Below are positions 6,957-45,204 of a DNA stretch of 51,121 nt, piece after piece. The notes under the pieces were generated by a model. The model saw only the letters and a list, made by a program, of their open reading frames with translations, ran no database searches and had not been told where the DNA came from. How positions within the stretch are numbered: position 1 is the first letter of the stretch; each line of letters begins with the position of its first letter. Both the position numbers and the translations under genes were made by a program. The stretch is from an uncultured bacterium (GTDB taxonomy: Bacteria > Bacteroidota > Bacteroidia > Bacteroidales > Muribaculaceae): NCBI GenBank assembly GCA_946184715.1, contig CAMHGU010000001.1, forward strand, positions 1 to 51,121. The letters run 5' to 3'.

Positions 6957-6985
6957 CTTATAACTCCAAAAAAGAACTGCGAATT

Positions 6986-11600: not shown

Positions 11601-11949
11601 GCCCGGCGACGAAGCCTACACCAACGTGCCCGTCATCGCCTCGCGCCGTCAGTACTACAACGACAGCCAGCTCTCCTACGCCTACAACGCCTACAACTAT
11701 TCTACGGCACGCGTAGCCAGTGGCAGTTTCATTCGTTTGAAGGACATCTCCATCACTTACAACTTGCCCGACCGCGCCCTCAAGGCTCTCCGCCTCAACT
11801 CCGCCTCGGTGAAGCTGCAAGCCACCAACCTCTTCTTGATCTATCGCGACAAGAAGCTCAATGGTCAGGATCCTGAATTCTTCAACAGCGGCGGTGTGGC
11901 TACTCCTATGCCTAAGCAGTTTACGCTCACTCTCCGTTTTGGTCTCTAA
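8608..11949 (+). CDS. SusC/RagA-family TonB-dependent outer-membrane transporter
   Basis: About 1113 aa. Signal peptide, then a carboxypeptidase-regulatory-like N-terminal domain (VTGVVLEEGTNEPAIGATV), a plug region (IRVRGATSIYG), a long barrel and a C-terminal ...FTLTLRFGL. A SusD gene follows immediately. No STN/anti-sigma-contact extension is present. ATG 8608 is preferred over GTG 8602. Confidence 0.92.
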   Translation: MRKKLLLFCGVLLMALNALADVTVTGVVLEEGTNEPAIGATVACKEKPSIATATDLEGNFTLKVPSANSHLQVTYVGMQTKTVKVSSEPMTITLVSDSKVLTEVVVTGMGTTDKRLYTGATTKIDASKTKLDGVADITRSLEGRAAGVSVQNVSGTFGTAPKIRVRGATSIYGTSKPLWVVDGVVMEDAVEISADDLSSGDAVTLISSAIAGLNADDIESFQILKDGSATSIYGARAMAGVIVVTTKQGKAGSTSINYTGEFTYRLKPRYSEFNISNSQEQMGIYKEMKDKGWLEFSSLVNSTSSGVYGTMYKLIDQYDPATGKYGLANTEQAMNEYLRGAEFRNTDWFDLLFNNTVMQNHAISISGGTDRGRYYTSTSIMYDPGWTKTSSVNRYTFNGNASYDLSKTLRVKILTADSYRKQKAPGTLSQDVDVVSGEVKRSFDINPYSYSLNTSRTTDPNAISTRNYADFNIFNELKNNYIDIDVLDVKFQGELNWRPINGLELNAIADYRYSSSKQNHYVKNQSNQAMAYRAGIFPENATIRDSNPYLYTDPDVPNALPQTVLPKGGILYHTLYSMSQFDFRGTAQYNKVFSSDHITNFMVGAEASSINRHTEAFTGWGIDYDNGNLPFLDYTMFKQMDEENGVYYSDSWTYRRNAAFFGTASYSWKSRYVFNGVLRYEGSNKLGKSNQSRWLPTWNVSAAWNAHEEPWLASIFQREDAWWNHAKLRLSYSLTGESGPDYVSNATPQFYPFRPWRPTTEAKELGLELSELGNSELTYEKKHEFDLGVDLGFLQNRINLSFDWYIRNNYDLIGRIYTEGVGGVTQKYANVASMRSHGVEFTLTTRNFDTQDFDWTTDFTFAYAKNKITELQSRSRVIDLIQGTGFPLQDYPVRAIFSIPFVGLNNEGLPMIINEDGDVTTSNINFQEFEKLDFLKYEGPVDPIITGGLNNSFRWKNWSANLFITYSFGNKLRLSPDFAAAYSDLDAMPKEFKNRWVKPGDEAYTNVPVIASRRQYYNDSQLSYAYNAYNYSTARVASGSFIRLKDISITYNLPDRALKALRLNSASVKLQATNLFLIYRDKKLNGQDPEFFNSGGVATPMPKQFTLTLRFGL

Positions 11950-11971
11950 TCGTTAACAGGAACTTACTACT

Positions 11972-13681: not shown

Positions 13682-13699
13682 TCCAAAATTGTCACAGTC

Positions 13700-14833
13700 A
13701 TGAAAGCAACCAAACTTATATATTCAGCTTTAGCGCTTGCCGTTGTGGCACTCTCATCGTGCAGCAAGGACAAGTTTACCGACACCATCTTCCCCGATGT
13801 CGATAACGAGCTCGACCCCAACTCCTACACATATAAATTCGACAAGTGGATTCAGCAGAGCTATCTGCTGCCTTACAACCTCGAGTTCCGCTATAAGATG
13901 GAGGACGTGAGCGCCGATATGAACTACAACCTCGTGCCTGCCGAGCTTGATAAAGCTATGGATCTGGCCGTGCTTACGAAGCACCTGTGGTTTGACGTGT
14001 ACAAAGATATCGTCAATGCCGACTTCTGCAAGCAGTATGGTCCCCGCATCATCCACCTCATCGGTTCGCCGGCCTACAACCCCAACTCCGGTACCGAAAT
14101 CCTCGGTTTGGCCGAGGGCGGTGTCAAGGTCACCCTCTTCAAGGTCAATGAGCTTAACGACCCCACTCCGGCCAACATCGAATTCTTGAATGAATACTAC
14201 TTCAAGACGATGCACCACGAGTTCTCCCACATCTTGCACCAGACCAAGTCGTACCCCAACGAGTTTGGCCTCATCAGCACCGGTCTCTACGATGCCAACA
14301 ACTGGCAGGATAAGCCCGAAGGCTATGTGAACTCGCGCGGTTTCGTCACTCCCTACGCCAGTTCGCAGGTGCGTGAAGACTTCGCCGAGACGATTGCCAA
14401 CTACATCGTCAAGACCGATGAGGACTACAAGAAGATCTACGACTACGCCGCAAGCGGCTGGGCTACCGACGATGCCGACGCCCTCACTCCCGTGTACTAT
14501 CGCTGGTACTACTGGAAGAACAACGAGGTAACCCCCGAGCAGCCCGAGAATATGGTGTACGTAAGCGATGCCGAGTGTGTATTCACTTACGACGAGGAAG
14601 GCAACCGTATCGGTGTCAACCTCCGCTCCGATAAGAGCATCATCGTCTATCCCGTGGAGGATACCGACGGCGTGGATGGCGTGGCTGTCATCAAGCAGAA
14701 GATTGAAATCGCCCGCAACTGGTTCAAGTCGGCCTGGAATGCCGACCTCGATGCCCTCCGCAATGAGGTGCAGGTGCGCCAGGTGAGCTACGACATCAAC
14801 GCTCTGCGCAAAGAAATTACTGACATTCAATAA
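13700..14833 (+). CDS. Substrate-import-associated zinc metallohydrolase lipoprotein (HExxH)
   Basis: Lipobox LSSC. HEFSH zinc motif at nt 14216-14230. The position directly after a SusC/SusD pair is typical for this lipoprotein family (family name from memory). Confidence 0.75.
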   Translation: MKATKLIYSALALAVVALSSCSKDKFTDTIFPDVDNELDPNSYTYKFDKWIQQSYLLPYNLEFRYKMEDVSADMNYNLVPAELDKAMDLAVLTKHLWFDVYKDIVNADFCKQYGPRIIHLIGSPAYNPNSGTEILGLAEGGVKVTLFKVNELNDPTPANIEFLNEYYFKTMHHEFSHILHQTKSYPNEFGLISTGLYDANNWQDKPEGYVNSRGFVTPYASSQVREDFAETIANYIVKTDEDYKKIYDYAASGWATDDADALTPVYYRWYYWKNNEVTPEQPENMVYVSDAECVFTYDEEGNRIGVNLRSDKSIIVYPVEDTDGVDGVAVIKQKIEIARNWFKSAWNADLDALRNEVQVRQVSYDINALRKEITDIQ

Positions 14834-14845
14834 TTTTGCACTGAT

Positions 14846-16180
14846 ATGAAACTGAATAAACTTTCCTATATAGCAGCCGCGTTATTGGCACTCACTGCTG
14901 CCACATCGTGCAAAAGCGAAATCGACGACATCTTCGACAAGTCGGCTGCCGAGCGTATTGAAGACGCTATCAGCGACTACACCAAGGTCCTCACTTCGGC
15001 TCCTAACGGCTGGGTGATGCAATACTTCGCCACCGATGAGGAAAAGGGCTATATCTACTATATGAATTTCAAGGCCGATGGCTCCGTAGTCATCGCCAGC
15101 GACAACGAGTGGATAGGCAACACTTATAAAGAGGAGACCAGTGTGTTCCAGGTAATCGGCGACGATGGCCCGGTGCTCACTTTCAATAGCTACAACACGC
15201 TCTTCCATCTCTTTGCCGACCCTAACGACGTGCCCGAATGGGGCGGCGACGTGCTCGGTGAAGGCCACAAGGGTGACTACGAGTTCCGCGTGATGGGCTA
15301 CGATGAGGCCACTCAGACTATGACCCTCCGCGGCAAGAAGCGCAACATCGAGATTCTTCTCACCCAGCTTCCCGCCGGCGTCAATCCTGAGCAGTACTTC
15401 GCCGACCTCAAGGAGAAACGACCCGCCGTGCTCGACGAGCGCGTTACCCTGCTGTATCTCACCACCCCCAAACACGAGTATATTGTGTACGATATGGCTT
15501 CGTGCGAAATAGGCTACTTCCCTGTGGATGGCGATGAGATTGCCGACATTCAGTATGCCACTTGCGTATTCAATGGCGACGGCATCCGCTTCGCCACTCC
15601 TCTCGAGCTCGACGGCGCCACCGTGCAGAACTTCAAGCTCAACTCGGCTGGCATTCTCGAGTGTGTAGATAAGGACCAGACTGCCACCCTCAGCCCCGGT
15701 AAGCTCTACGACGTGTTCACTTCAGTCAACTACGCTTGGCAGATGGATTCACAGTCGCTCACCGGTAGCGTTTCTGATGCATATCAAGCCGTGGTGGACG
15801 AAAGCAAGGCCAAGACCGGCGGTTTCGGACAGAATTTCCGCTACTTCTTGTTCGACATCTTTGTAGATGCCGATGGCGTTGTGCATCCGGCCCTTAGCTT
15901 CCGCAACGGTAACGCAACAGGCCACTTCTACCTCGACAAGAACGAAGCCGGCGACAACGGCGTCAAGTTTGCCTTTACCGGAAGCGGCGATGCTGTAGCG
16001 CTCCGCTACATGGAGCTTGAGAACGGTCCCACCTTCACCACTAAGGCTTATCAGGACTTCATCGCCCTGCTCACAGCCGGCGAGTGGACTATCACTGCCA
16101 ATTCGGCTATGGCTCCCACTGAGCTTACCTTCGTCAATAAGAACAACACTGCCGACACTTTCAAGGTAGTGCTCCAATGA
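14846..16180 (+). CDS. DUF4302-like surface lipoprotein
   Basis: Lipobox ATSC followed by KSEIDD. It is 444 aa. In my recollection, the neighbourhood SusC-SusD-metallohydrolase-DUF4302 is recurrent in Bacteroidota. No catalytic motif was seen. Confidence 0.6.
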   Translation: MKLNKLSYIAAALLALTAATSCKSEIDDIFDKSAAERIEDAISDYTKVLTSAPNGWVMQYFATDEEKGYIYYMNFKADGSVVIASDNEWIGNTYKEETSVFQVIGDDGPVLTFNSYNTLFHLFADPNDVPEWGGDVLGEGHKGDYEFRVMGYDEATQTMTLRGKKRNIEILLTQLPAGVNPEQYFADLKEKRPAVLDERVTLLYLTTPKHEYIVYDMASCEIGYFPVDGDEIADIQYATCVFNGDGIRFATPLELDGATVQNFKLNSAGILECVDKDQTATLSPGKLYDVFTSVNYAWQMDSQSLTGSVSDAYQAVVDESKAKTGGFGQNFRYFLFDIFVDADGVVHPALSFRNGNATGHFYLDKNEAGDNGVKFAFTGSGDAVALRYMELENGPTFTTKAYQDFIALLTAGEWTITANSAMAPTELTFVNKNNTADTFKVVLQ

Positions 16181-16228
16181 TAGAATTTTCAATTTAACCT
16201 ATTTATTAATCCCTAACTACTTAGTACG

Positions 16229-18796
16229 ATGAAGAAATTTTTACTTCTTTCGCTCGTAGCTCTCACAGCAGTGGGTGCTTCGGCAACTAAGCACTTCAGC
16301 CGCGTAAGCCGTCAGGCCGACGAGATGAAGGCTGTGGTGATGCAGAAGGTGGTCAGCGACCGCTCTGATGTCCTCCGTCAGGCCGCTCAGGCTAAGGTGG
16401 TGAAATCGGTAGTCGCTAAAAACGGCACTAAGGTTCTTCTTATGGAGAACAACGGCGTGGCAAGCAAGCACCTCATCGGTGCCGCCGACGCTAAGGTGGC
16501 CGCCAAGAAGCCCCGCGTAGCCCTTAAGGACGCCGCTGAAGGAGCTTCCTTCTACGAAGACTTCGAAGAGTACGACGGCACCTCTTGGGCCTGGCTCCCC
16601 GAAGGCTGGAAGCGTGAATCGAAAGCCGGCTACGAACCCGGTGCCACTAAAGAAGAAACCGCCGGTTACAACTTCTCGTGGGCTGTATCGGCAGGCGCTT
16701 TCACCGCTATGCCGCAGGGCAAATACGGCGCTCGCGTGCAGTTTGCTCACCCCGTAAACACCACCGGTGACGAAGAGGCTGAGCCTAACTACGGTCTTGA
16801 CCCCCAAGACGAGTGGCTCTACACTCCCGTATTCACTCCCGGTCGCCAGGAGAAGATCACTGCCATCGTGCAGTACTCGCCCTTCTGGTATCGCATCAAC
16901 AACGACATCCTCTTCGAATCGTTCGAATTCGTGTTCGACGCTGAGAACTGCAACCTCGAGGTGCTCCTCTCCGAAGATGGTGGTAAGACGTTCGAAACTA
17001 AGGTATTCGACGCTATCGAATACTCGAAGCAGAAATACACCGACGAAGAGCTTGCCGAGGCGTTAGGCGAAGACATTCAGGCAAAGGTGTCGATCGACGC
17101 TACCGACTATGTAGGCAAGGAAGTGGTTCTCGCTTTCCACTACTACGGTTATGATGGCGAATCGGCAGTTGTTGACGTTGTGAAGTCGGCAATTCCGCAG
17201 CCCGAAGCTTACTACTACAACCCCACCGGTACGCTCTACTCCGGTCTCGACATTGACTGGTACAGCCTTACCGACACTTGGACAGTGCTCCCCGCTTACA
17301 CCGACGTGACTTGGCTCAACGCCTCCAACGACGATAGCGAAGAGTTCCTTTGGAGCTATGTAGATCCTGAAGGCACTCCCACAGAGGAAGGTTTCCTCTC
17401 CGATATGATTGAAACCGATGATGTTGACCTCACCGCGCAGTACGGCTTCTACGATTCGCTTGATCAGAATCCTATCCTTGCTGCTTCGGCAGGCGACTTC
17501 GGTGCTGAATACCAGGCCGATTACTCGCCCTACATCCAGTTTGGTGGCGACTTCGACCTTACCGACTACACCGCAGCCCGCAACTTCGGTCTTACCAACT
17601 GGCGCGACGTCCCTGATGCTGATGGCAACTCCATCGGCAACTGGGGCTTCGGTATCGGTTACGACGACACTTGGAATCGTATCTTTGGCACCGAGACTTC
17701 GGAGGCTCGCATGTCGGCTGTAGCTCAGTACTTCCCCAGCGCAGGTCACCCCATCCTTCTTAAGGGTGCTTGGGCTCTCGCAGGCTGGCAATCCACAAGC
17801 GACTTTGAGGTTACTGCCAATGTAATCGCTGTTAACCCCGACGGTACCCTTGGTGAAACCGTAGCTTCCGCTACCACCACTGTTCCCGCTCAGGCTGAGT
17901 TCGGCGCAGGTACTATCGAGTTCAAGTTCGAGACTATCGACCCCATCACTCAGCTCCCCGTTGATGGTGAGATTACTGTCGACAATGGTTTCCTCCTCGT
18001 ATTCGACTGGGATAAGGAAGCTGTGGATGCCGCAGGCGTTGAAGCCCTGACATTCCTTGCCAACAGTGACCCCATTGCTGATGGCGACACCTATGGCTAC
18101 TTCTTCATCGAAAGCACCGACCTCGAGACCGGTGAGGCTAAGCAGTCGCTCTATCCGACCGATGCTCTCTCAATCTCGACAGGCCCGTGCTACCTCTCGT
18201 TGTGTGTAATGATTGATGGTAGCTACACCGCTCTTGAGCCCCTCTTCGATGAAAGCGAAGCTATCATCGATGCCGACGTAGCCGGTGAAACCCGCGTATT
18301 CCCCGTGGTTACTTCCGAAGACACCGAGAGCATCTTCGTACAAGAGGATGAGGAAGGCACTCTCCCCGAGTGGGTATCCTATACTCTCGAGGACGTTTAC
18401 GGCGAAGAGACCGAAGGCCGTCGCAAGGCTGAAACTTATCAGTACACCGCCTTCACCGTTACTATCGACGCTCTCCCCGAAGGCACCGACTATCGTGAGA
18501 CCGAACTCACCCTCCGCGTGCCCGGTGATAAGATTGACTTCATTATTACTCAAGGCGAATACACAGGTGTCAACGTCGTTCGCAAGGACAATGGCATCAA
18601 GGTTTCGACCGTAGGTGACAACTTCGTAATCACCGCTCCCGCCGACGTGAAGTACGTACGCGTATTCAACGGCGCCGGTCAGCTCGTGAAGACTGCTGCC
18701 CTCAACGGCACCACCAACGTCAACAACGCCGACCTTGCTAACGGTATCTACATCCTCCGCTTCAGCAACAAGGCCGTTGTGAAAGCTGTGAAATAA
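16229..18796 (+). CDS. Large secreted protein with T9SS type-A C-terminal sorting domain
   Basis: SPI signal peptide, then a K/A-rich linker, then an FYEDFEE..W.WLPEGW segment (choice-of-anchor-J-like). The C-terminal about 75 aa (VRVFNGAGQLVKTAAL..ADLANGIYILRFSNKAVVKAVK) match the T9SS CTD pattern. Confidence 0.75.
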   Translation: MKKFLLLSLVALTAVGASATKHFSRVSRQADEMKAVVMQKVVSDRSDVLRQAAQAKVVKSVVAKNGTKVLLMENNGVASKHLIGAADAKVAAKKPRVALKDAAEGASFYEDFEEYDGTSWAWLPEGWKRESKAGYEPGATKEETAGYNFSWAVSAGAFTAMPQGKYGARVQFAHPVNTTGDEEAEPNYGLDPQDEWLYTPVFTPGRQEKITAIVQYSPFWYRINNDILFESFEFVFDAENCNLEVLLSEDGGKTFETKVFDAIEYSKQKYTDEELAEALGEDIQAKVSIDATDYVGKEVVLAFHYYGYDGESAVVDVVKSAIPQPEAYYYNPTGTLYSGLDIDWYSLTDTWTVLPAYTDVTWLNASNDDSEEFLWSYVDPEGTPTEEGFLSDMIETDDVDLTAQYGFYDSLDQNPILAASAGDFGAEYQADYSPYIQFGGDFDLTDYTAARNFGLTNWRDVPDADGNSIGNWGFGIGYDDTWNRIFGTETSEARMSAVAQYFPSAGHPILLKGAWALAGWQSTSDFEVTANVIAVNPDGTLGETVASATTTVPAQAEFGAGTIEFKFETIDPITQLPVDGEITVDNGFLLVFDWDKEAVDAAGVEALTFLANSDPIADGDTYGYFFIESTDLETGEAKQSLYPTDALSISTGPCYLSLCVMIDGSYTALEPLFDESEAIIDADVAGETRVFPVVTSEDTESIFVQEDEEGTLPEWVSYTLEDVYGEETEGRRKAETYQYTAFTVTIDALPEGTDYRETELTLRVPGDKIDFIITQGEYTGVNVVRKDNGIKVSTVGDNFVITAPADVKYVRVFNGAGQLVKTAALNGTTNVNNADLANGIYILRFSNKAVVKAVK

Positions 18797-28675: not shown

Positions 28676-28683
28676 TAACTTTG
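28676..28683 (+). promoter_or_regulatory. Candidate -7 box (TAACTTTG) for the beta-barrel/PCMD sub-operon
   Basis: Exact TAnnTTTG match 42 nt upstream of ATG 28725. No clear -33 TTTG. Confidence 0.3.
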
Positions 28684-28724
28684 TGGCCGCAAAACCAAGT
28701 AAATCAATATCCAGCCATCGAGAG

Positions 28725-29555
28725 ATGAAAATACTACATTATATATATAGGGTCGCGCTGTGGAGTCTCGCGCTTCTGCCGCTTTCGGCCCGGGCGCAGG
28801 AAGCCGCGCAGCTTATATCGCCATTGCCCGTCGATAGCGTGGCGCTCGCTGCCGATACCCTTGCCGCCGCTCCGGCCAAGGAGCTGCCCAAGTTCAATCG
28901 TGGCATTAAGCCCAGGGTGTTTGTGCCCAAAGGACAGATTGTGGCCGGCTTCAATGCCAACTTCAGCCAGTCCAATCAGAACAACTATCAGTTTTTCATC
29001 ATCGAAAGCGTGAACGGCAACACCGGCTCTATGAAAATCTCGCCATGGTGCATATATATGTTCCGCGACAATCTCGGTGCCGGCGGCCGTGTGGCCTACA
29101 CCCGCTCGCGCACTAAGATGGATAAAGCCAATGTGATATTCGACACCGAGACCAAGTACAGCGTCGACGACCTCTACAGCATCTCGCAGTCGCTATCCAC
29201 GATGGCGGTGATGCGCGCCTACATCAACTTGGGCAACAGCACCCGCTTCGGCATCGTGGCCGATGTGCAGCTCGAGTACTCCCACAGCACCGCCAAGATG
29301 ACCAACGGTCAGGGCATGGACTTCACCGGCTCCTATGCCACTACCAACGCCTTCAACCTCGGCGTTGCCCCCGGCCTCGTGATGTTTCTCAACAACTACT
29401 CGGCCATCGAGGTCAACGTCGGGATGCTCGGCCTCGGCTTCAAGAAGACCAATCAGCTCACCAATCAGGTGCGCGTGCAAGATATGCGCTCCACGGTGGC
29501 CAATTTCAGTATTAACCTCTTCTCCATCTCTATCGGGATGTCGTTCTATCTGTAA
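28725..29555 (+). CDS. Putative outer-membrane beta-barrel protein D (paralog of E)
   Basis: SPI signal peptide (LPLSARA|QEA). Alternating hydrophobic/polar pattern throughout. The C-terminal strand is ANFSINLFSISIGMSFYL. ATG 28725 is preferred over the GTG at 28683. Confidence 0.6.
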   Translation: MKILHYIYRVALWSLALLPLSARAQEAAQLISPLPVDSVALAADTLAAAPAKELPKFNRGIKPRVFVPKGQIVAGFNANFSQSNQNNYQFFIIESVNGNTGSMKISPWCIYMFRDNLGAGGRVAYTRSRTKMDKANVIFDTETKYSVDDLYSISQSLSTMAVMRAYINLGNSTRFGIVADVQLEYSHSTAKMTNGQGMDFTGSYATTNAFNLGVAPGLVMFLNNYSAIEVNVGMLGLGFKKTNQLTNQVRVQDMRSTVANFSINLFSISIGMSFYL

Positions 29556-30475
29556 TGTCTATGAAACGAATAGCCAATATCCTGATAATGATGCTTATAG
29601 CAGCTATGGGTGCTGCCCTGGCAGCTCCGGCCGAGAGCGACAGCATCACCCGCGTGCGCGATAAGATTGTGATGCCGTGGTTCCCTTCCAAGGCTAAGGT
29701 GATACGGACTGAGGACGATGTGGAGCAGGTGCTCGTGGGTAACGACACCGTCGATATGGTGCTCCCCGTGTTCAACTACGGCCGCTACGACCGCCATCTC
29801 TCCAACTATCTGTATATCCCCAAAGGCTCCTGGTCGTTCGGCCTTATGGCCTCCTACGGCAGCCTCAACAGCAACGATATGTCGCTGCTCAATATGGTGG
29901 GCGAGTTCAACTTCGGCGGCAACGCCTTCTCTATCCGCCCTTACGGCAGCTACTTCTTCCGCAGCAACCAGTGTATCGGTATGCGCTTCAACTACACCAA
30001 TTGGCATGCCGACCTCAAGTCGCTCAAGATCGACTTCATCGACGACCTCAACCTCGACATCCACAATGTGCTCTACGACAGCAAGGGCTACTCGATGTCG
30101 GTGTTCTACCGCAACTATATCGGTCTCGACCACGGCAAGCGCTTCGCCATCTTCAACGAGGTGGACCTCTCCATAGGCGGCGGCAACGGCAAGTTTGTGC
30201 GCTACTATAGCGACCTGCCGCGCGACACCCGCACCTCCACCTTCGACCTCCGCCTCAACTTCTCGCCCGGCGTGTCGGTGTTCTTCCACGAGAATGTGGC
30301 GTTCAACGTGTCGTTTGGCGTGTTCGGTATCTACTACACCCACGGCCGTCAAACCACCTACAAGACTCTCAGCGACGGCACCATAGAAGAGGAAACGGGC
30401 ACCCGCAACGCCAGCGGCGCCAATTTCAAGTTCAATCTCTTCAACATCAACTTCGGCATCGCAGTTCATATATGA
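29555..30475 (+). CDS. Putative outer-membrane beta-barrel protein E (paralog of D)
   Basis: TAATG stop/start overlap with D. Signal peptide (GAALA|AP). Motifs collinear with D: PKG.., I.P...Y.FR.N.G, and the C-terminal ANFKFNLFNINFGIAVHI. Confidence 0.6.
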   Translation: MSMKRIANILIMMLIAAMGAALAAPAESDSITRVRDKIVMPWFPSKAKVIRTEDDVEQVLVGNDTVDMVLPVFNYGRYDRHLSNYLYIPKGSWSFGLMASYGSLNSNDMSLLNMVGEFNFGGNAFSIRPYGSYFFRSNQCIGMRFNYTNWHADLKSLKIDFIDDLNLDIHNVLYDSKGYSMSVFYRNYIGLDHGKRFAIFNEVDLSIGGGNGKFVRYYSDLPRDTRTSTFDLRLNFSPGVSVFFHENVAFNVSFGVFGIYYTHGRQTTYKTLSDGTIEEETGTRNASGANFKFNLFNINFGIAVHI

Positions 30476-30497: not shown

Positions 30498-32078
30498 ATG
30501 AATAAACGTATCCTATATATATATATGGTCATCGCCGCGGCGGCTATCGCGGCCCTGAGCGGTTGTATCAAGAACGATATCCCGTATCCCCGCGATCAGC
30601 TCAACTTCCTGGAGTTTGAAGCCGAAGGACAATCGTCATCAGCCGAAATCGACACCAAGAACTGCATTGTCACCGTCAATCTGCCGGAGCAGTCCAATCT
30701 GCGCCGCGTGGCCGTGGCTTCCTATAAACTCAGCGAGGGTGCCGAGGTGGTAAGCCCCGACCTCTCGTCGCCGCTCGACCTGCGTGAGAACGTCAAGGTG
30801 CTCCTGCATCGCTACTACGACACCGAGTGGATCATCAGGGCCAACCAGCCCATCGCGCGCTGCTTCGTGCTGCCCAATCAGGTGGGTACCTCCGTCATCG
30901 ACGTGCCCGGCAAGCGCGTGGTGGCCTATGTGCCCAAGACTGCCGACCTTAGGGCCCTCGAAGTGGACACCATCAAGCTCGGCCCCGCCGACGTCACCAC
31001 CGTGTCGCGCAATCTGAACCATCAGATTGTCGATTTCTCCTTGCCGCTGCGCCTTACCGTCAGCTACCACGACGAAGTGGAAATCTGGACTATCTACGTG
31101 CAGACCACCGACGTCAACGTATCCACCAGCCGCGTCGATGCCTGGAGCCGCGTAATCTGGGCCTATGGCGAGGGTAAAGCCGGTGCCGACAATGGTATCC
31201 GCTATCGCGAGCAGGGCCAGGAAGAGTGGATTACCGTCGATGCCGCTTCGATTACTCACAGCGGCGGTTCCTTCACCGCCCGCATCAATAGCGTCAAGCC
31301 CGAAACCGCCTATGAGGTGCAAGCCTACTCGGGCGAGGAGCTCGGCGAGATAGTCACTGTGACCACACAAGGCCTCTTCACCATTCCCAATATGGACTTC
31401 GACGACTGGAGTCTCAACGGCAAGATCTACCAGCCGTGGGCCGAAGGCGCCGAGGCGTTCTGGGACACCGGCAACCGCGGTGCCACCACGCTCGGCGACA
31501 GCAACACTATCCCCGGCAACATCACTTGGGACGGCGCAAGCGGCCGCAGTGCGATGCTGCAAACCAAATTCGTGGGCATCGGGGTGGTAGGTAAGCTCGC
31601 CACCGGCAATATCTACACCGGCGAATTCGTGCGCATCGATGGCTCCAACGGCGTGCTCAACTTCGGCCGCCCCTTCACCGGCCGCCCCACGCGCCTCAAC
31701 GGCTATATGAAGTACACCACGGCGCCCATCTCCTCTACCAATTCCGACCTCGCATATATGAAAGGCCAGCCCGACACGGCCCATATCTACATCGCCCTGA
31801 CCGACTGGGAAGCGCCCTTCGAGATACGTACCAACCCCAAGAATCAGCACCTCTTCGACATCAAAGACGAGCATATCATTGCCTACGGCAACATGCAGTG
31901 GGGCTCCAACGTGGATGAGTTCACACAATTCACCATCCCGCTCGAGTATCGCGCCACCAATCGCGTGCCACGCTATATCCTCATCGTGGCCGCCGCGTCG
32001 AAGTACGGCGACTTCTTCACCGGTGCCGACGGCGCCTGCCTCTGGGTGGACCATTTCTGGTTCGATTGGGACTACTGA
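30498..32078 (+). CDS. Surface lipoprotein F: Ig-like N-terminus, Fn3-like module, PCMD-like C-terminal domain
   Basis: Lipobox LSGC followed by IKNDIP. Fn3-like IRYREQGQEEWITV..VKPETAYEVQAY. C-terminal motifs PNMDFDDW, FWDTGNRG, GNIYTGEF, RPTRLNGYMKYT and LWVDHFWFDWDY, collinear with A and C. Confidence 0.8.
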   Translation: MNKRILYIYMVIAAAAIAALSGCIKNDIPYPRDQLNFLEFEAEGQSSSAEIDTKNCIVTVNLPEQSNLRRVAVASYKLSEGAEVVSPDLSSPLDLRENVKVLLHRYYDTEWIIRANQPIARCFVLPNQVGTSVIDVPGKRVVAYVPKTADLRALEVDTIKLGPADVTTVSRNLNHQIVDFSLPLRLTVSYHDEVEIWTIYVQTTDVNVSTSRVDAWSRVIWAYGEGKAGADNGIRYREQGQEEWITVDAASITHSGGSFTARINSVKPETAYEVQAYSGEELGEIVTVTTQGLFTIPNMDFDDWSLNGKIYQPWAEGAEAFWDTGNRGATTLGDSNTIPGNITWDGASGRSAMLQTKFVGIGVVGKLATGNIYTGEFVRIDGSNGVLNFGRPFTGRPTRLNGYMKYTTAPISSTNSDLAYMKGQPDTAHIYIALTDWEAPFEIRTNPKNQHLFDIKDEHIIAYGNMQWGSNVDEFTQFTIPLEYRATNRVPRYILIVAAASKYGDFFTGADGACLWVDHFWFDWDY

Positions 32079-32254: not shown

Positions 32255-32285
32255 TTTGGTATATCAGATTGATGTTGTACTTTTG
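32255..32285 (+). promoter_or_regulatory. Candidate promoter with both -33 (TTTG) and -7 (TACTTTTG) elements
   Basis: TTTG at 32255-32258 and TACTTTTG at 32278-32285 are separated by 19 nt. This fits the Bacteroides TTTG/TAnnTTTG consensus geometry and lies about 115 nt upstream of ATG 32399. Confidence 0.5.
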
Positions 32286-32398
32286 TGCCGTAAACCTATG
32301 TTTTACAGCAAGAATTTGTTGTTGTGCCCCGGAAGCCTCAATTGGGGGAGGCGCCGTCAAGTACAGCAGCTATGTTTAATATGTTATAGTAAAAGCCT

Positions 32399-34156
32399 AT
32401 GAAGAAATTTACTTTATTTGCTGCAGCAGCTATCGTAGCTCTCACGGCTTCGGCCAAAGGCGATGCTTTGAGCATCAAGAGCGCGGTTGCTATGAACGGC
32501 GAAGCATCGGTGAAGAAGATTGAAGCCGGAGCTACGCTTAAAGCTACAACGAAATCCGACTTCAACATCACTCGCGAAGGTCGCAAAGCCACCAAGGCCA
32601 TCACTCCCAAAGCTGATGATGCCACTCCCACAGTCATCACCGAGCAGCCCGAAGGCGAACTCGTGCAATATGAGCGCGATGGATTCAATTGGGTTTATTC
32701 TAATGGTATTTCGCGCTACCTCCAAGCGGGAATCACCGATGTAGTTTATTCAGAGGATGATAATAGAGTATGGCTGAAAGACCCCCTTTCGTTTATCTCA
32801 AACGGTGCTTGGATTGAAGGTGAAGCAGTAGATGGCGGTTCTACGCTGAAATTCCGTACCGGGCAATTTTTGTCGTGGAACGAAAGCGAACAGTATGGTA
32901 TTTGTGTTGGATTCTATGTCCCGAATCAGAGCCCTACTACTGTTGCTTCCATTGCTGCCCTTGACACCGAAGAGGAATATATTACATTTACAATCGATGG
33001 TAATGTGATAAAGCCGAGTGGAGCCTTAGCCGCAAAGGATGCTGCGACTAATAATTATGGTATGCCAACTGAAGGAAAAATGCTCGGAGGATACTGGAAC
33101 GACGATCTTTCACCGGTTGGTTATTATTTTGATTGGGGTACGACACTTACAGAGTATGTAGCTCCCACCGATCCGATTGTCGTTCTGCCCGATGGACTTG
33201 AGACTGAAGAGTTTAACCTTACAGGTAATACCGATAGCGGTGCACTCTCGCAGAAGATCAATGTGGCTTTTGACGGCAGTGATGTCTATATCCAGGATTT
33301 CTCCGGTTTCTTCCCGGAGGGTTGGATTAAGGGTACTATCGGCGAAGATGGAACTACAGTGAAGTTTGGGCCTCAGTATCTCGGTTTATACATGGATAAG
33401 CATGTTATGTATCTTGTGGGTGCAACCTACGATCAGAGCGCTGGTAGTTTATTGCTCACCGAGGATAGCGGCTTCGAGTTTGAATACGATGCCGAGGCCC
33501 GCACTCTCAGCCAGACTACCGGCTATATTCTCGTCAATGGAAGCAAGGATGATTTAGGCTACTATGCTTACGCCTATGATCTCTTCATCTCCAATGAAGG
33601 CCCGGCCACTCCGGCAGCTCCCACCATCCTCAGCTGGACGGCCTACGATGAGGCTACCGGTAGCGGCTCGATGACTGTGCAGATGCCCATCATCGACACC
33701 GAGGGCAACGCCCTGCTTATACAGAAACTGCAGTACAAGCTGTATTCGGATATCGAGCGCGACACCACCGCCGTAACCGCAGGCTTCACGCTCTCCAACG
33801 TTGAGCAGTTTGACAACACGAGCCTCAAGCTTACCTTCACCACCGATGCCACTACCGTTGATTTCAACAATGTGGGCTTCAGCGCCATCTACAACGGTGG
33901 TCTCGAATCGCACGAATCGGAAATCGCTTGGTATCACATCAAGGACTACGCTCCCACGGCCACTGTCGGTGACCTGAACAACGACGGCTCGATCGATGGT
34001 AACGACGTGTCGGCTCTCCTCGAGATGGTTCTCGCCGGCGGCGTGAGCGATGAGCAGATGGGCGCGGCCGATGTCACCGGCGATGGAAGTGTCGATGGTA
34101 ACGACGTGTCGGCTCTCCTCGAGGTAGTTCTCGCCGGCGGCGGCTCTGGCGAATAA
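32399..34156 (+). CDS. Secreted protein G with C-terminal dockerin-like (double EF-hand) module; paralog of H
   Basis: SPI signal peptide and K/A-rich linker. The shared core motif is FPEGWIKGTIGEDGTTVKFGPQYLG. The C-terminus GDLNNDGSIDGNDVSALLEMVLAGG...ADVTGDGSVDGNDVSALLEVVLAGG has two dockerin-type Ca-binding segments. Confidence 0.8.
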   Translation: MKKFTLFAAAAIVALTASAKGDALSIKSAVAMNGEASVKKIEAGATLKATTKSDFNITREGRKATKAITPKADDATPTVITEQPEGELVQYERDGFNWVYSNGISRYLQAGITDVVYSEDDNRVWLKDPLSFISNGAWIEGEAVDGGSTLKFRTGQFLSWNESEQYGICVGFYVPNQSPTTVASIAALDTEEEYITFTIDGNVIKPSGALAAKDAATNNYGMPTEGKMLGGYWNDDLSPVGYYFDWGTTLTEYVAPTDPIVVLPDGLETEEFNLTGNTDSGALSQKINVAFDGSDVYIQDFSGFFPEGWIKGTIGEDGTTVKFGPQYLGLYMDKHVMYLVGATYDQSAGSLLLTEDSGFEFEYDAEARTLSQTTGYILVNGSKDDLGYYAYAYDLFISNEGPATPAAPTILSWTAYDEATGSGSMTVQMPIIDTEGNALLIQKLQYKLYSDIERDTTAVTAGFTLSNVEQFDNTSLKLTFTTDATTVDFNNVGFSAIYNGGLESHESEIAWYHIKDYAPTATVGDLNNDGSIDGNDVSALLEMVLAGGVSDEQMGAADVTGDGSVDGNDVSALLEVVLAGGGSGE

Positions 34157-34191
34157 CCAAGCCTACGGCCTTAACCGTACACTATATCGAA

Positions 34192-34232
34192 GGCAGCCGC
34201 TATCTATCCCGAAAGGCGGCTGCCTTTCATTT
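34192..34232 (+). terminator. Rho-independent terminator after gene G
   Basis: GGCAGCCGC (34192-34200) pairs with GCGGCTGCC (34216-34224), followed by TTTCATTT. Confidence 0.65.
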
Positions 34233-34277
34233 GCAAAGAAAAATGCCGAAAAATATTGTTAATCGAAATGTTTTTGC

Positions 34278-34285
34278 TATATTTG
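34278..34285 (+). promoter_or_regulatory. Candidate -7 box (TATATTTG) upstream of gene H
   Basis: Exact TAnnTTTG match. A partial -33 (ATTG ending at 34257) lies 20 nt upstream. Confidence 0.35.
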
Positions 34286-34380
34286 CGGCATAAATTGTAA
34301 TCAACGCTGCTCGTCGGCATATCTTATAGGCTATAGGTGCCGCGGCAGTAATTCTATTAATCCCAAACATAACCAAGCCT

Positions 34381-36093
34381 ATGAAAAAACTTTTACTCTC
34401 TCTCGTAGCTGTAGCCCTCGTGGCAATGTCAGCATCGGCCGCAAAGGTCAGCTTCAAGCCGACCCACAACGCCGGCCAGGCCACCACAGCCGTTAAGAAG
34501 GCTCCCAAGATGAATGTGGAGAAAGCTCGCTCGCTCAAGAAAGCCGGCCTCAAAGCCGCTGAGGATTTCCCTATCATCACCGAAGCTCCCGAAGGCACCA
34601 CAGAGTACATCTTTAAGCGTACAGGTAGTGCCACCCTCGTTTATTTCATTTGGTCGATGGAGACCGTACAGGACAATATGGCACTTCGCGCCTACGTTGA
34701 CCTCGCCAATATGAAGGTGTATATCAAAGACCCCGTGTCCAATTACGCTACCGGCGCTTTAGTAGAGGGCAACATCTTGGTTAAAGATGGCCAGTATTTC
34801 CTCGAAGTGCCCCTCGGCCAGAATCTTCTCTATAGCGAGGACTATGACGCCGCCACTCAGCTTTGGTTCCTCAATGGTGTGGAAGTGGAGGAAGACGGCG
34901 AAACTTATATTTCGTATGAAGTGGACCGCACCACAGTCAGCGCCGTATATTCGCTTGACCTGACTACTATGACGGTGGAGCTGCTCGGTGGCAGCAATGC
35001 TGAAGGTGAGGTCAAAATGCAGAGCGAGATGTTCGTGCTCGGCTCCGTATGGAGCGACGACGACTCCTGGACCGGCTACAGCGACTGGGATTCGGAGTAC
35101 ACTCTCTTCAACGACAAGCCGGTGGAAGGCCCCGCCGAGACTCTCGAGCCTGAAACTTGGTACGTAAGCGGCACAAGCTACTCCGGCGATGCTGTTACCT
35201 ATCCTTGCAATGTGGTAATCGATGGTGCCGACATCTACGTCCAGGGCGTGATGGCCGACCTTCCCGAAGGCTGGATTAAGGGTACTATCGAAGACGGCGT
35301 TGCCACATTCGCAGGTCCCCAGTATATGGGTATCACCGAGGGCAACTGGTTTATCTACGCCACCGGCGCTACCGATGGTGAGGAAGACGACTTCGAATTA
35401 GCCAATCCTATCACCTTCGCCTACGATGCCGAGGCCAAGTGCCTGACGCTCGAGAACGACTACCTGCTCTTCAACTGCTCCGATACCGACATCGATGGTT
35501 ACGACCTCCTTGCCAACGGCACCACCATCTCCTTTATCGAAGATAAGGAAGCCATGCCCGCCGCTCCCGAGTTCTCTTACGTAGGTGACTATGATCCCGA
35601 CTACGGTTATGGCTACGCAAGCATCTATCAAGAAGCTGTGGATGAAGATGGCAACCTGATTCTGCCTGACAAGCTCTACTATCAGTTCTGGAAAGAGGAA
35701 GGCAACGAGAAGAGCATCGTTGAGTTTAACCCCGACGAATATATGTATCTTATCGATCCTATGACCGAGATCCCCTACGCCTTCAGCGACGATTATGACT
35801 TCAACAACTTTGGTAATGACAAGACCATCTACCTCAACTTCGACTACAGCAGCTGGGACGGCATCGGTGTTCAGGCTATCTACTACGGTGGCGACGTGCG
35901 CACCGAGAGCAAGATCACTTGGTACGAGCTCTCCGGCGTTGAGGATGTCACCGCGGCTAAGAGTGTCGCTTCGGCTATTTACTACGACCTTACCGGTCGC
36001 CGCGTGGCTAAGCCCGCTCAGGGTGGTGTGTACGTGAAGAGCGTGAAGTACACCGACGGTACTGCTAAGAACTTCAAAGTGCTTGTGAAGTAA
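34381..36093 (+). CDS. Secreted protein H with T9SS type-A C-terminal sorting domain; paralog of G
   Basis: SPI signal peptide and K/A-rich linker. Core motif LPEGWIKGTIEDGVATFAGPQYMG (19 nt identical to G: tggattaagggtactatcg). The C-terminus AIYYDLTGRRVAKPAQGGVYVKSVKYTDGTAKNFKVLVK matches the T9SS CTD pattern. Confidence 0.8.
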   Translation: MKKLLLSLVAVALVAMSASAAKVSFKPTHNAGQATTAVKKAPKMNVEKARSLKKAGLKAAEDFPIITEAPEGTTEYIFKRTGSATLVYFIWSMETVQDNMALRAYVDLANMKVYIKDPVSNYATGALVEGNILVKDGQYFLEVPLGQNLLYSEDYDAATQLWFLNGVEVEEDGETYISYEVDRTTVSAVYSLDLTTMTVELLGGSNAEGEVKMQSEMFVLGSVWSDDDSWTGYSDWDSEYTLFNDKPVEGPAETLEPETWYVSGTSYSGDAVTYPCNVVIDGADIYVQGVMADLPEGWIKGTIEDGVATFAGPQYMGITEGNWFIYATGATDGEEDDFELANPITFAYDAEAKCLTLENDYLLFNCSDTDIDGYDLLANGTTISFIEDKEAMPAAPEFSYVGDYDPDYGYGYASIYQEAVDEDGNLILPDKLYYQFWKEEGNEKSIVEFNPDEYMYLIDPMTEIPYAFSDDYDFNNFGNDKTIYLNFDYSSWDGIGVQAIYYGGDVRTESKITWYELSGVEDVTAAKSVASAIYYDLTGRRVAKPAQGGVYVKSVKYTDGTAKNFKVLVK

Positions 36094-36125: not shown

Positions 36126-36160
36126 GGTGGCGCTCCCGCATCGGGGCGCCACCTTTTTTT
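36126..36160 (+). terminator. Rho-independent terminator after gene H
   Basis: GGTGGCGC / GCGCCACC stem with a 12-nt loop, followed by TTTTTTT (36154-36160). Confidence 0.8.
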
Positions 36161-41123: not shown

Positions 41124-41993
41124 ATGTCAGATATAGTAATAGCAGGCGTGATGAGGGCCGGAGCCTTCTCGCCCAATCACATAGGTAACGACGCCGCTAT
41201 CTTCAACGCCACCGCCGAGCAGCTCCGCAAGCGTGGCTGCGAAGTGAATGTATATAGCGAGGAACAGCTCGCCCGCGGCGAGGTGACCGAGCCGATAATC
41301 CTGAATATGTGTCGCGAGCAGAGCAGCATCCACCTCTTGCAAAAGTATGAGGACGAGGGCCGCCTGGTCATCAACTCGGGCTACGGCATCGAGAACTGCA
41401 CGCGCGAGCGAATGACGCGTATCCTCATCGGCAACGGTATCCCGTACCCCGAGAGCCTGATGGTCAACACCAACGAGGCCGTAAAACCCGCCCTTAAGAA
41501 GGCCGGCATCGCCTCCTGCTGGATCAAGCGCGGCGACTTCCACGCCCAGCACCGCGAGGACGTGACCTACTGCCGCAATATCGACGAGGCGCAAGAGACC
41601 CTCCAAGAGTTCTTCTATCGCGGCATCAAGCGCGCCGTCATCAATCGTCACCTCGTGGGCGACCTTGTCAAGTTCTACGGAGTGGTGGGCCAGCCCTATT
41701 TCTTCTGGTTCTATCCCTTCGATGAGGGCCACAGCAAATACGGCTACGAGGCCATCAACGGCAAGAGCCAGGGTCTGGAGTTCGACCCGAAGCGCCTCAA
41801 GGCCATCTGCGCCGACGCGGCCGACGCACTCGACATCAAGATTTACGGCGGCGACTGCATCATCGACGACCAAGGCAATATCAGCATCATCGACTTCAAC
41901 GACTGGCCCAGCTTCGCCCCCTGCCGCAACGAGGCCGCTCCTTACATCGCTAAAGGGGTGCTGGCGCTCATCAAGCAGTTCAAAGACCTTTAA
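41124..41993 (+). CDS. ATP-grasp-like protein (possible inositol-phosphate-kinase-like fold)
   Basis: 289 aa. The C-terminal IIDFNDWPSF resembles the Mg-binding D-x-N..P segment of ATP-grasp enzymes. The Asp form recalls the IDINxFPGY motif of ITPK-type kinases (from memory). Confidence 0.5.
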   Translation: MSDIVIAGVMRAGAFSPNHIGNDAAIFNATAEQLRKRGCEVNVYSEEQLARGEVTEPIILNMCREQSSIHLLQKYEDEGRLVINSGYGIENCTRERMTRILIGNGIPYPESLMVNTNEAVKPALKKAGIASCWIKRGDFHAQHREDVTYCRNIDEAQETLQEFFYRGIKRAVINRHLVGDLVKFYGVVGQPYFFWFYPFDEGHSKYGYEAINGKSQGLEFDPKRLKAICADAADALDIKIYGGDCIIDDQGNISIIDFNDWPSFAPCRNEAAPYIAKGVLALIKQFKDL

Positions 41994-42014
41994 CCTCAAT
42001 AACCATCCCCCGCA

Positions 42015-42971
42015 ATGAGTCTGAAATCTTTGCGCGACGAATATCGCGCCACTCTCAAATCGAAAGATACCGAGGAGACCATCGACCTCCTCTTTTACCG
42101 CCCCATAGGTTTCGCGTGGGCCAAGCTCTGCGCTGCCGTGGGCATCACTCCTAATGTCATCACCATTGCCTCTATATTTATAGGTGTGGCAGCCGGCGTG
42201 ATGTTCTACTTCGACAACCTGTGGTACAACGTCATCGGTATGCTACTGCTGATATGGGCCAACTCGTTCGACAGCGCCGACGGCCAGCTCGCGCGTATGA
42301 CCAAGCAGTATTCGCGCCTCGGGCGTATCCTCGACGGCGTCAGCGGCGACCTATGGTTTGTCACCATCTACTTCGCCATCTGCTTCCGTATGATTCAGTG
42401 TGTCAACGACCCGCTCGTTGGCGACCTCTTCGTGCAGCACCACTGGATTATCTGGACCATCGCCATCGTAGCCGGAATATGCCACGCCAAGCAAGCCGCT
42501 ATGGCCGACTACTATCGCCAGTTCCATCTCTACTTCCTCAAGGGGAAAGAGGGTAGCGAGCTTGAGCGCGTGGAGCTGCTCGACGCCAAGCTGAGCCGTA
42601 TGAGCTGGCGTAAGGAGTTCGGCGCCAAGTTGGTGCTCTTCTTCTACCGTAACTACACTGCCAATCAGGAGAGTATGACCCCCGCAATGCAGACCTTCCG
42701 CCGTGAGCTCCGCGAGCGCTACGGCGAAGAACTGCCCCAAGAGCTTCGCGACGACTTCCGCCGCGCAAGCCTCCCGCTGATGAAGTACACCAACTGGCTG
42801 TCGTTCAATATGCGCACCATCACGCTCTTCATCGCCCTCTTCTGCCGCGTGCCCTGGTGCTACTTCGTGGCCGAAATCGTAATTTTCAACGCTCTCCTTA
42901 TATATATGTGGCGGCGCCACGAGGCTATCTGCCGTCGGTTTATCAACTCTATTAAGCAGCAAGCAGTATGA
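42015..42971 (+). CDS. CDP-alcohol phosphatidyltransferase family membrane protein
   Basis: Signature DSADGQLAR-x8-GRILDGVSGD starts at nt 42270. It matches D-x2-DG-x2-AR-x8-G-x3-D but has a one-residue shift before the last Asp. Multiple TM helices. Confidence 0.85.
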   Translation: MSLKSLRDEYRATLKSKDTEETIDLLFYRPIGFAWAKLCAAVGITPNVITIASIFIGVAAGVMFYFDNLWYNVIGMLLLIWANSFDSADGQLARMTKQYSRLGRILDGVSGDLWFVTIYFAICFRMIQCVNDPLVGDLFVQHHWIIWTIAIVAGICHAKQAAMADYYRQFHLYFLKGKEGSELERVELLDAKLSRMSWRKEFGAKLVLFFYRNYTANQESMTPAMQTFRRELRERYGEELPQELRDDFRRASLPLMKYTNWLSFNMRTITLFIALFCRVPWCYFVAEIVIFNALLIYMWRRHEAICRRFINSIKQQAV

Positions 42972-43678
42972 TCAAAGGGCTTATCTTCGACTACGGCGGC
43001 ACACTCGACAGCCGCGGTATCCACTGGAGCGAGGTGATTTGGGACGGATACCGCGAGGCCGCGGTGCCGGTCACCAAGGAGCAATTTCGCGAGGCGTATG
43101 TATATGGCGAGCGTGAACTGGCGCGCACTCGCCACATCTTGCCTCACCACACCTTCCGCGACCTCCTCGACATCAAGATGCGCATCGAATTGCGCTACCT
43201 TGCCGAGCAGGGGCTGTTCACCGTTCGTCAAGCCGACCAGTGGGTACCCGTCATTGCCGGATATTGCTACCGCTTCGCCAAGAACTGCGTGGAAGAGGCG
43301 CGTATGGTCCTCGCCTTATTATATAATGAGTACCCGATAGTGCTCGTCAGCAATTTCTACGGCAACATCGAAGCCGTGCTCAACGATTTCGGCATCGCCA
43401 AGTACTTCGATAAGATTGTGGAGAGCGCCGTGGTGGGCGTGCGCAAGCCCGACCCGCAGATTTTCACCCTCGGCGTCGAGGCCCTCGGCCTTAAGCCCGA
43501 CGAGGTGCTCGTGGTGGGCGACAGCTACACCAAGGACATCGAGCCGGCCCTCAAAGCCGGGTGCCACGCCGTGTGGCTAAAGGGCAAAGGCTGGACCGAT
43601 AAGGAGGACGCAATAGAGTATCCTCACACTATCCGAAAATTGGGCGAATTGCTCGATAGCAGCATTTTGAAAAATTAA
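42968..43678 (+). CDS. HAD-superfamily hydrolase (subfamily IA-like)
   Basis: ATGA overlap with the upstream gene. Motif I is FDYGGTLD, motif II LVSNF, motif III the Lys in VRKPD, and motif IV VGDSYTKDI. Confidence 0.8.
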   Translation: MIKGLIFDYGGTLDSRGIHWSEVIWDGYREAAVPVTKEQFREAYVYGERELARTRHILPHHTFRDLLDIKMRIELRYLAEQGLFTVRQADQWVPVIAGYCYRFAKNCVEEARMVLALLYNEYPIVLVSNFYGNIEAVLNDFGIAKYFDKIVESAVVGVRKPDPQIFTLGVEALGLKPDEVLVVGDSYTKDIEPALKAGCHAVWLKGKGWTDKEDAIEYPHTIRKLGELLDSSILKN

Positions 43679-43724
43679 CAAAATTGCGCTGAAATCGGTC
43701 AAATTTAACGGCAATTAACTAAAA

Positions 43725-43769
43725 CGGCTCGAATTTTACAATAAATAACTATTCGAGCCGCATTTTTTT
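43725..43769 (+). terminator. Rho-independent terminator after the HAD gene
   Basis: CGGCTCGAAT (43725-43734) pairs with ATTCGAGCCG (43751-43760), followed by CATTTTTTT. Confidence 0.8.
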
Positions 43770-43780
43770 CCTCTTTTAAT

Positions 43781-43810
43781 TTTGTATGTGAAAAAATGGC
43801 AGTACTTTTA
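43781..43810 (+). promoter_or_regulatory. Candidate promoter for the MIPS gene (TTTG-18 nt-TACTTTTA)
   Basis: -33 TTTG at 43781-43784. The -7-like TACTTTTA at 43803-43810 has A instead of G in the last position. Confidence 0.35.
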
Positions 43811-43914
43811 CACCGTTTTTCGCAAAGCCACCCGGTTGGGCCGCTAAATGGAGCGAAAAGCACAACAAACCGAACGTGAAACAATAGAATTGTAAATAAC
43901 CTTTAATTAAAATT

Positions 43915-45204
<1,290 letters not shown>

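Follow-up and report, generated by a model that had tools for sequence, protein, structure and literature searches.

Why should two neighbouring genes of one bacterium encode secreted proteins with the same body and different C-terminal ends? The question is raised by genes G and H, which follow one another on the plus strand of a stretch of 51,121 nucleotides (nt) from an uncultured bacterium of the Muribaculaceae (GenBank assembly GCA_946184715.1, contig CAMHGU010000001.1, positions 1 to 51,121 of the forward strand). This whole stretch is called the window here; all coordinates refer to it, and the genes were taken from the listing of its open reading frames (ORFs). Comparison of the two proteins and their relatives shows that they are tandem paralogues from a large, unnamed family, in which a shortened tail like the sorting domains of the type IX secretion system (T9SS), as on H, has been exchanged repeatedly for a type I dockerin, as on G. 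The two genes and their C-terminal modules are as follows.

32399 to 34156, plus strand: gene G, 585 amino acids (aa) (ORF listing, BLASTP, Pfam, structure model, Foldseek and local hidden Markov models, HMMs).
34381 to 36093, plus strand: gene H, 570 aa (ORF listing, BLASTP, structure model and local HMMs).
33968 to 34132, plus strand: dockerin module of G, two Ca-loop/helix segments DLNNDGSIDGNDVSALLEMVLA and DVTGDGSVDGNDVSALLEVVLA (Pfam, Foldseek, internal repeat and Ca-ligand pattern).
35932 to 36090, plus strand: short T9SS type-A-like tail of H, SGVEDV...IYYDLTGRRVAKPAQGGVYVKSVKYTDGTAKNFKVLVK (family-tail profile and local HMM).

The first-pass annotation of this locus had proposed a common build for the two proteins, and BLASTP bore this out with an alignment of 511 residues at 29% identity (E=6e-38), which rules out a likeness confined to short motifs; G and H are full-length tandem paralogues. 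The motifs ITE[QA]PEG, PEGWIKGT and I[AT]WY were all found in both proteins in the alignment, and the 19-nt stretch of identical DNA that had been reported, TGGATTAAGGGTACTATCG, was located at 33323-33341 in G and 35272-35290 in H, embedded in a 28-nt match of 89%. The start of the proteins and their AlphaFold models likewise agreed with the annotation, with a signal peptide of the signal peptidase I (SPI) type and no lipobox Cys in either, followed by a basic stretch rich in Lys and Ala that is disordered in the models (residues 1-57 of H and 1-72 of G). In G, the signal (aa 1-19) and linker (to ~72) are followed by modules A (~73-260), B (~264-403) and C (~405-518) and by the dockerin (524-578), and in H, the signal (aa 1-20) and linker (to 57) by A (58-250), B (251-392), C (393-517) and the tail (518-570). 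The modules were delimited with local HMMs, and as those of A and B cross-match, the two are divergent copies of one repeat with the motif D..V[YW][IL][KQ]D...W[IV].G...G...F..GQ[YF]L. Module C of G carries a deletion relative to H and other family members. Both proteins are predicted to have the same all-beta strand layout (mean pLDDT 84.8 and pTM 0.75 for H, 79.5 and 0.67 for G), and in a five-sequence alignment both bodies stop at ES[EK]I[AT]WY[HE][IL], beyond which G and H are wholly different.

The module beyond this junction in G had been described as two-segment and dockerin-like, and the description held. Residues 524-573 matched Pfam Dockerin_1 (PF00404) at 34.2 bits against a gathering cutoff of 22.9, and both segments carry the canonical Ca2+-loop D-x-[DN]-x-D-G-x-[IV]-x-x-x-D followed by a helix (DLNNDGSIDGND... 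and DVTGDGSVDGND...), with the Ca-ligand pattern kept in the orthologues P0002 and P0003. Helices were predicted at residues 534-545, 551-557 and 567-578 (pLDDT ~83-90), and Foldseek superposed the modelled module on 6kge_B from a cohesin-dockerin complex of C. acetobutylicum (probability 1.00, TM 0.82, root-mean-square deviation 2.9 Å, 34% identity). By profile and predicted fold, the C-terminus of G is a bona fide type I dockerin, though not of the NCBIfam GC-type subtype, as it scored 15.7 with that model, below its cutoff of 29. At the DNA level, 51 nt of the first segment (33993-34043) recur in the second (34092-34142, 99 nt apart) with 96% identity, which suggests a recent duplication or gene conversion keeping the binding faces alike. 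A search with the G dockerin alone gave just nine tiny ORFs, 70-82% identical, in related contigs; these are probably broken pieces of genes, or what remains of other proteins, and their occurrence suggests a receptor specificity common to the lineage. A metagenome scan with G-type dockerins recovered generic dockerins alone, which aligned with most of the query length and were 36-45% identical to it, and was uninformative.

The end of H had been called a typical T9SS C-terminal domain (CTD), of which the homology stood at profile level and the word typical did not. The tail has ~50 aa and 3-4 predicted strands, and matched the local family CTD HMM at E=1.7e-20. A profile of the family tails matched structures of the RgpB CTD (5hfs, E=5.8e-5; 7pq4, 9.3e-5; 5ag9 and 5ag8, ~3e-3) with alignments in register up to the terminal Lys. 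It further matched three other enzymes of Bacteroidota type (4kca, 7jvi and 8bbl), in each case at the very C-terminus. Compared with a canonical CTD, the first strands are missing and ~13 residues fewer lie between the G[RQ].V and G.Y. motifs. We therefore call it, on profile evidence, a putative shortened type-A-like T9SS CTD; it is terminal in 176 of 199 family proteins.

The family has no Pfam or NCBIfam model. An exhaustive profile search of sequences clustered at 50% identity returned 6,117 cluster representatives at E<=1e-3, of which 2,190 reached E<=1e-30. The 28-29 matches of word-indexed searches had made it look like a rare family, an artefact of that type of search. Many members are 900-2,100 aa long with up to eight A/B repeats. 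The named members and genome matches all come from metagenome-assembled genomes (MAGs) of uncultured gut and rumen Bacteroidales (Muribaculaceae, Prevotellaceae, Sodaliphilus and others), and a narrow-alignment scan of GTDB representative genomes gave relatives at <=33% identity and none closer, so that the species of the window is not represented there.

The C-terminal tags were counted in the 150 best family representatives, where 133 (~89%) end in a CTD-like tail, 12 (8%) in a two-segment dockerin that occupies the same junction as the CTD-like tail, and five in variants. Dockerin-ended members fall into at least four to five groups of body similarity, namely the G clade, a large A(x5-6)-C clade, P0118, P0169 and P0117. 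The nearest neighbour of P0118 is the CTD-ended P0090 (66% identity), those of P0169 are likewise CTD-ended (43%), and the dockerin subtypes differ between the body groups. As dockerin-ended members are scattered in this way with differing dockerin subtypes, the exchange of CTD for dockerin is recurrent in the family, always at one junction. Besides, one member, P0092, has an internal dockerin (residues 1057-1114) together with a terminal CTD-like tail, so dockerins evidently can travel with T9SS cargo. No lipobox was found in any of 198 family proteins. The claim that one body carries two address modules was thus upheld and extends well beyond G and H; the two modes of deployment drawn from it are plausible and half supported.

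In three of the five variants (P0041, P0046 and P0103), a third type of tail, ...NGQLVIEKNGAKFNVLGVDIK, stands at the same junction in place of both CTD and dockerin; it matched neither of the local HMMs for these two modules.

The arrangement of G followed by H is kept in three lineages: that of the window, a sister lineage represented by four metagenome contigs (L002-L005), and a divergent one (L001) whose orthologues of G and H are 50% and 60% identical, respectively. Between the window and L002, DNA identity is 97-100% over the gene upstream of G, the remainder of G, the spacer and all of H, and drops sharply in one block of G. These features are:

30498 to 32078, plus strand: gene of a PCMD-domain lipoprotein directly 5' of G (Pfam PCMD, 7e-43), also 5' of G in L001-L005.
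32620 to 33230, plus strand: mosaic block in G (module A), ~610 nt at 47-58% DNA identity to L002, with flanks at 97-100%.

Module A, the distal, N-terminal part of G, has thus been replaced like a cassette between near-identical lineages, a pattern expected of a surface-exposed domain under diversifying selection. Smaller patches divergent from L002 were also seen in the PCMD gene (30498-30587 and 30948-31037) and in G (33468-33557).

The PCMD gene is the sole neighbour kept in all orthologous G-H loci, while the downstream genes vary. The two genes had been said to lie directly downstream of a lipoprotein/barrel locus, and a cluster of DUF4493 and PCMD lipoprotein genes does lie directly 5' of G; the position is therefore right, but as a trait of the family the link was rejected, as PCMD genes were near just 2 of 17 distant family loci and the association is kept in the orthologous G-H loci alone. 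Between the DUF4493 lipoprotein genes and the PCMD gene lie two adjacent paralogues (28683-29555 and 29555-30475) of 290 and 306 aa with signal peptides and no Pfam or NCBIfam match, which are kept in L002 and L003 and cross-match each other's orthologues there in phmmer at ~1e-16 to 1e-17; they are probably outer-membrane beta-barrels. An origin of G and H from a phage or mobile element was rejected, as the flanks are chromosomal housekeeping genes and no viral fold matched. Elsewhere in the window, 41124-45204 holds genes for a CDP-alcohol phosphatidyltransferase, a HAD phosphatase and myo-inositol-1-phosphate synthase beside nucleotidyltransferase genes and looks like an inositol-lipid synthesis cluster, and a eukaryote-like Ser/Thr protein kinase fused to Sel1 repeats (6953-8269) adjoins a zeta-toxin/AAA_33-like gene (6152-6742).

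Each gene had been credited with its own promoter-like box and terminator, and both kinds of element were found for both genes:

32255 to 32285, plus strand: promoter-like region of G, TTTG at 32255-32258 and the Bacteroidetes -7 box TACTTTTG at 32278-32285.
34192 to 34233, plus strand: hairpin 3' of G, GGCAGCCGC, a 15-nt loop, GCGGCTGCC and then TTTCATTTG; the stem is of 9 bp and GC, and the hairpin itself spans 34192-34224.
34255 to 34285, plus strand: promoter-like region of H, TTG at 34256-34258 and the -7 box TATATTTG at 34278-34285, kept in L001.
36126 to 36160, plus strand: intrinsic terminator 3' of H, an 11-bp stem with nine GC pairs followed by a run of seven T; the hairpin and its T-run were read at 36126-36153.

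Both -7 boxes are of the TAnnTTTG type; that of G, read from the sequence, lies ~114 nt and that of H 96 nt 5' of the ATG, and for H an automated scan placed the site at 34256-34283. The block TAcTTTTGTGCCGTAAAyCTATGTTTTACA at the promoter of G is kept in L001, and the 5' regions of both genes are conserved in that orthologous locus although the proteins are just 50-60% identical. The hairpin behind G, a probable terminator, was passed over by a simple terminator scan as its loop exceeds 8 nt; it is near-identical in L002-L004, and in L001 a different GC hairpin occupies the same place. The leader of G also holds a small hairpin at 32335-32352, GCCTC-AATTGGGG-GAGGC, which reads GTCTC-AATTGGGG-GAGAC in L001, that is, with one compensatory base-pair change and an identical loop, within an otherwise conserved leader of ~110 nt; this may be a regulatory RNA element.

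We also looked for signs of a T9SS in the genome. The window lies within ENA ERZ12202942 NODE_195, of 78,395 nt, its right end ~0.5 kb from the end of the contig, and it holds one further gene of direct relevance:

16229 to 18796, plus strand: 855-aa ORF that ends in a full-length, canonical CTD of T9SS type A and scores 30.1 bits with TIGR04183 (cutoff 23).

This gene closes the stretch 8602-18796, where Peptidase_Mx1, DUF4302 and the 855-aa protein come after a SusC/SusD pair; the stretch is a locus like those for polysaccharide utilisation, with a T9SS cargo gene at its end. As the ORF passes TIGR04183, the genome probably uses a T9SS. A second contig from the same sample, L008, has similar coverage and a tetranucleotide correlation of r=0.94 with the window, against 0.95 between the two halves of the window and <=0.72 for any other Bacteroidales MAG locus, and is probably a sister contig. 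Its genes include those for a GldH lipoprotein, for an S8 peptidase and for a GH53 enzyme with a short tail of the family type; the S8 peptidase, scored on the near-identical locus L007, passes TIGR04183 and also matches the family-tail model. Because of the TIGR04183-passing ORF, the GldH gene and the CTD-tailed enzymes, a T9SS is likely to be present, and a 2026 preprint also takes CTD-bearing Muribaculaceae proteins as T9SS-anchored (PMC13404670). That H is T9SS cargo, as the first-pass annotation had it, therefore receives indirect backing from the homology of its tail to the gingipain CTD, from the ORF and from L008, and we consider it likely; the covalent attachment to the surface that was claimed with it is pure inference.

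The same two loci carry, 5' of the cluster with the CTD-tailed S8 peptidase and GH53 enzyme, an 87-aa dockerin-only ORF (10001-10264 in L007 and L008) with no signal peptide, 80% identical to the dockerin of G and probably what is left of a longer dockerin-bearing protein. The L007 copy has a HicA/HicB pair inserted immediately ahead of this ORF, and L008 is without the pair.

We favour, at somewhat better than even odds, a reading in which H follows the default T9SS route and G is held through its dockerin on a cohesin-like receptor. The default C-terminal module of the family would be the shortened type-A-like sorting tail, and H would be exported by Sec, have its tail read by the T9SS, pass over the outer membrane and remain at the surface through its C-terminus, module A facing away from the cell. 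In the lineage of G, a Ca2+-binding dockerin of type I has taken the place of this tail, exactly at the common junction that follows ..S.I.WY.., and at least three further lineages made like swaps of their own. The two dockerin segments of G are near-identical, as in dockerins with a dual binding mode, and G would most likely be held non-covalently by the cohesin-like receptor instead of by T9SS attachment. Taken by itself, the proposition that G is a docked surface protein stands about even in our judgement: the dockerin half of what the first-pass annotation had claimed was recovered and the partner half was not. Dockerin genes do tend to lie near one another, as in the tandem pair of L033 and the fn3-dockerin neighbour of L028.

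Several observations weigh against this reading. The export gap of G is its chief weakness, since G has an SPI signal alone, with neither CTD nor lipobox, and therefore no known mechanism would take it across the outer membrane; judged by its sequence it seems to have no recognisable route. No cohesin (PF00963) or other candidate receptor was annotated in any of the eight neighbourhoods of dockerin genes examined, and Foldseek gave no cohesin match for the bodies of G and H. These bodies also have no Pfam, NCBIfam or PDB-sequence relative. On the side of H, no core gene of the T9SS (porK/L/M/N, sov, porU/V) was present in the ~57.6 kb of contig read, comprising the window and ~6.5 kb upstream of it. 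The tail of H alone had no Pfam or NCBIfam match at E<=1, and among 39 family tails scanned singly none matched PF18962 and three matched TIGR04183 at E<=1 (best E=0.019). It is also shorter than the 70-80-residue, seven-strand, immunoglobulin (Ig)-like sandwich of a CTD. Finally, the hosts are uncultured and each step of localisation is inferred.

The likeliest alternative, though we consider it unlikely, is that G is not displayed on the surface at all. It would be a functionally diverged paralogue, periplasmic or released in vesicles or by lysis, and its dockerin would be a Ca2+-dependent module for stabilisation or oligomerisation or would bind a ligand other than cohesin. The export gap and the cohesin-free neighbourhoods fit this, as does the deletion in module C, and many dockerins outside cellulosome producers are without a known partner (PMC6118326; PMC6487960). 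The cassette-like, hypervariable N-terminal domain, typical of exposed proteins, speaks for display, as do the near identity of the dockerin segments with Ca ligands intact in all orthologues, and P0092, where a dockerin sits on a family member that bears a CTD and hence is exported.

The export gap of G leads to another explanation, which we rate as improbable, that G travels with a carrier. The dockerin would bind in the periplasm to a CTD-bearing protein, either H or other T9SS cargo with a cryptic cohesin-like module, and the two would be co-exported, so that the dockerin would serve indirectly for export in addition to anchoring. T9SS transports folded cargo, G lacks an export signal of its own and the G-H tandem is kept in three lineages, all of which suit such an arrangement, as does the repeated replacement of the CTD by a dockerin at precisely one junction. 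Against it, neither Pfam nor Foldseek detected a cohesin-like module in H, no CTD-ended paralogue accompanies the other dockerin-ended members (in L033 two dockerin genes stand in tandem, and the neighbour in L028 is a dockerin gene), and we found no description of piggy-back export by T9SS in the literature. Equally improbable is a broader reading in which gut and rumen Bacteroidales would have a cohesin-dockerin-like surface assembly beside or through the T9SS, where G-type proteins bind a receptor module on a T9SS-anchored protein, possibly in the periplasm, and are carried piggy-back. The dockerin would then truly stand in for the CTD in both export and anchoring, which would account for at least four exchanges at one junction.

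Least probable of all is that the tail of H is no T9SS signal but an unrelated small beta module, such as a surface-binding or oligomerisation hairpin, sharing G[RQ].V...G.Y. and served by another route of export or retention: its length and few strands, the failure of PF18962 and TIGR04183, the lack of core genes in the ~57.6 kb read and its weak hhalign match to the contig's own canonical CTD (E=0.007, probability 5.6%) would agree with this, but the profile matches four RgpB CTD entries in register to the C-terminal Lys together with the C-termini of Bacteroidota enzymes, the tail is overwhelmingly terminal, and the same short tail occurs on the GH53 enzyme of L007 and L008 next to the TIGR04183-passing peptidase.

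Foldseek searches of full-length G and H against the PDB and of H against BFVD returned generic Ig and fibronectin type III strings alone (TM <=0.19), and the whole-family sequence profile matched PDB sequences solely through the tail. An elongated chain of beta-domains with a variable number of repeats and a C-terminal anchor fits an adhesin or coat protein. The family, with at least 2,190 clusters, no Pfam model and a strain-variable head domain, may provide a major adhesin or coat for uncultured bacteria of Muribaculaceae- and Prevotellaceae-like kinds.

To our knowledge, T9SS sorting and cohesin-dockerin assembly, both well studied as means of surface display, have been treated as separate worlds, the one of Bacteroidota and the other of Firmicutes cellulosomes. 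Here, a single large Bacteroidales family repeatedly switches between both tags at one junction, and in one lineage a gene of either kind is maintained next to the other. This recurrent swap hints at an undescribed docking system on gut and rumen Bacteroidales. If the dockerin-ended forms are truly displayed, these diderms need a new receptor and a new route over the outer membrane for dockerin proteins, each of which would be a novelty for T9SS research and for the study of how gut and rumen are colonised. Our search of the literature gave no description of CTD/dockerin alternation or of rumen Bacteroidetes dockerins tied to T9SS tails. T9SS CTD cargo and type I dockerins are known kinds of protein; the unnamed family, the repeated alternation of tags, the conserved mixed tandem and the mosaic head appear to be new.

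Among known systems, the type I dockerins of clostridial cellulosomes (C. acetobutylicum Doc0917, 6kge; PF00404) are the closest counterpart of the end of G, with two near-symmetric 22-residue Ca-loop/helix segments, a C-terminal position and, as predicted for G, a common three-helix fold. G was not assigned to a cellulosome, as its body has no carbohydrate-active enzyme or other Pfam domain and no cohesin was found, and it differs from the clostridial proteins in its diderm Bacteroidales host, its non-enzymatic body, the absence of a detected cohesin or scaffoldin and the alternation of the dockerin with a T9SS tail within one family. Bensoussan et al. (2016, PMC6487960) described type-I-like dockerins on rumen proteins affiliated with Prevotella or Bacteroides, which may have been acquired laterally from Firmicutes and to which neither a partner nor a role was assigned; that study catalogued dockerins only and made no tie to a T9SS-CTD family, to CTD/dockerin tandem paralogues or to tag swaps. 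H resembles T9SS type A cargo such as RgpB of P. gingivalis (5hfs and 5ag8), which is also a Bacteroidota protein with a Sec signal, a multidomain beta body and a C-terminal beta tail, and the RgpB CTD and the tail of H have the motifs ...G[RQ].V... and G.Y....K..K in common and in register. H departs from canonical cargo in its tail of ~50 instead of 70-80 aa, which falls below the cutoffs of curated HMMs, and in a body without a known relative. TfsA and TfsB of Tannerella forsythia are two large, tandem-encoded paralogous surface proteins that are exported by T9SS through their CTDs and form the outermost coat of the cell. From this general description they would be, like G and H, tandem surface paralogues in Bacteroidales, and unlike G both of the Tfs proteins carry CTDs.

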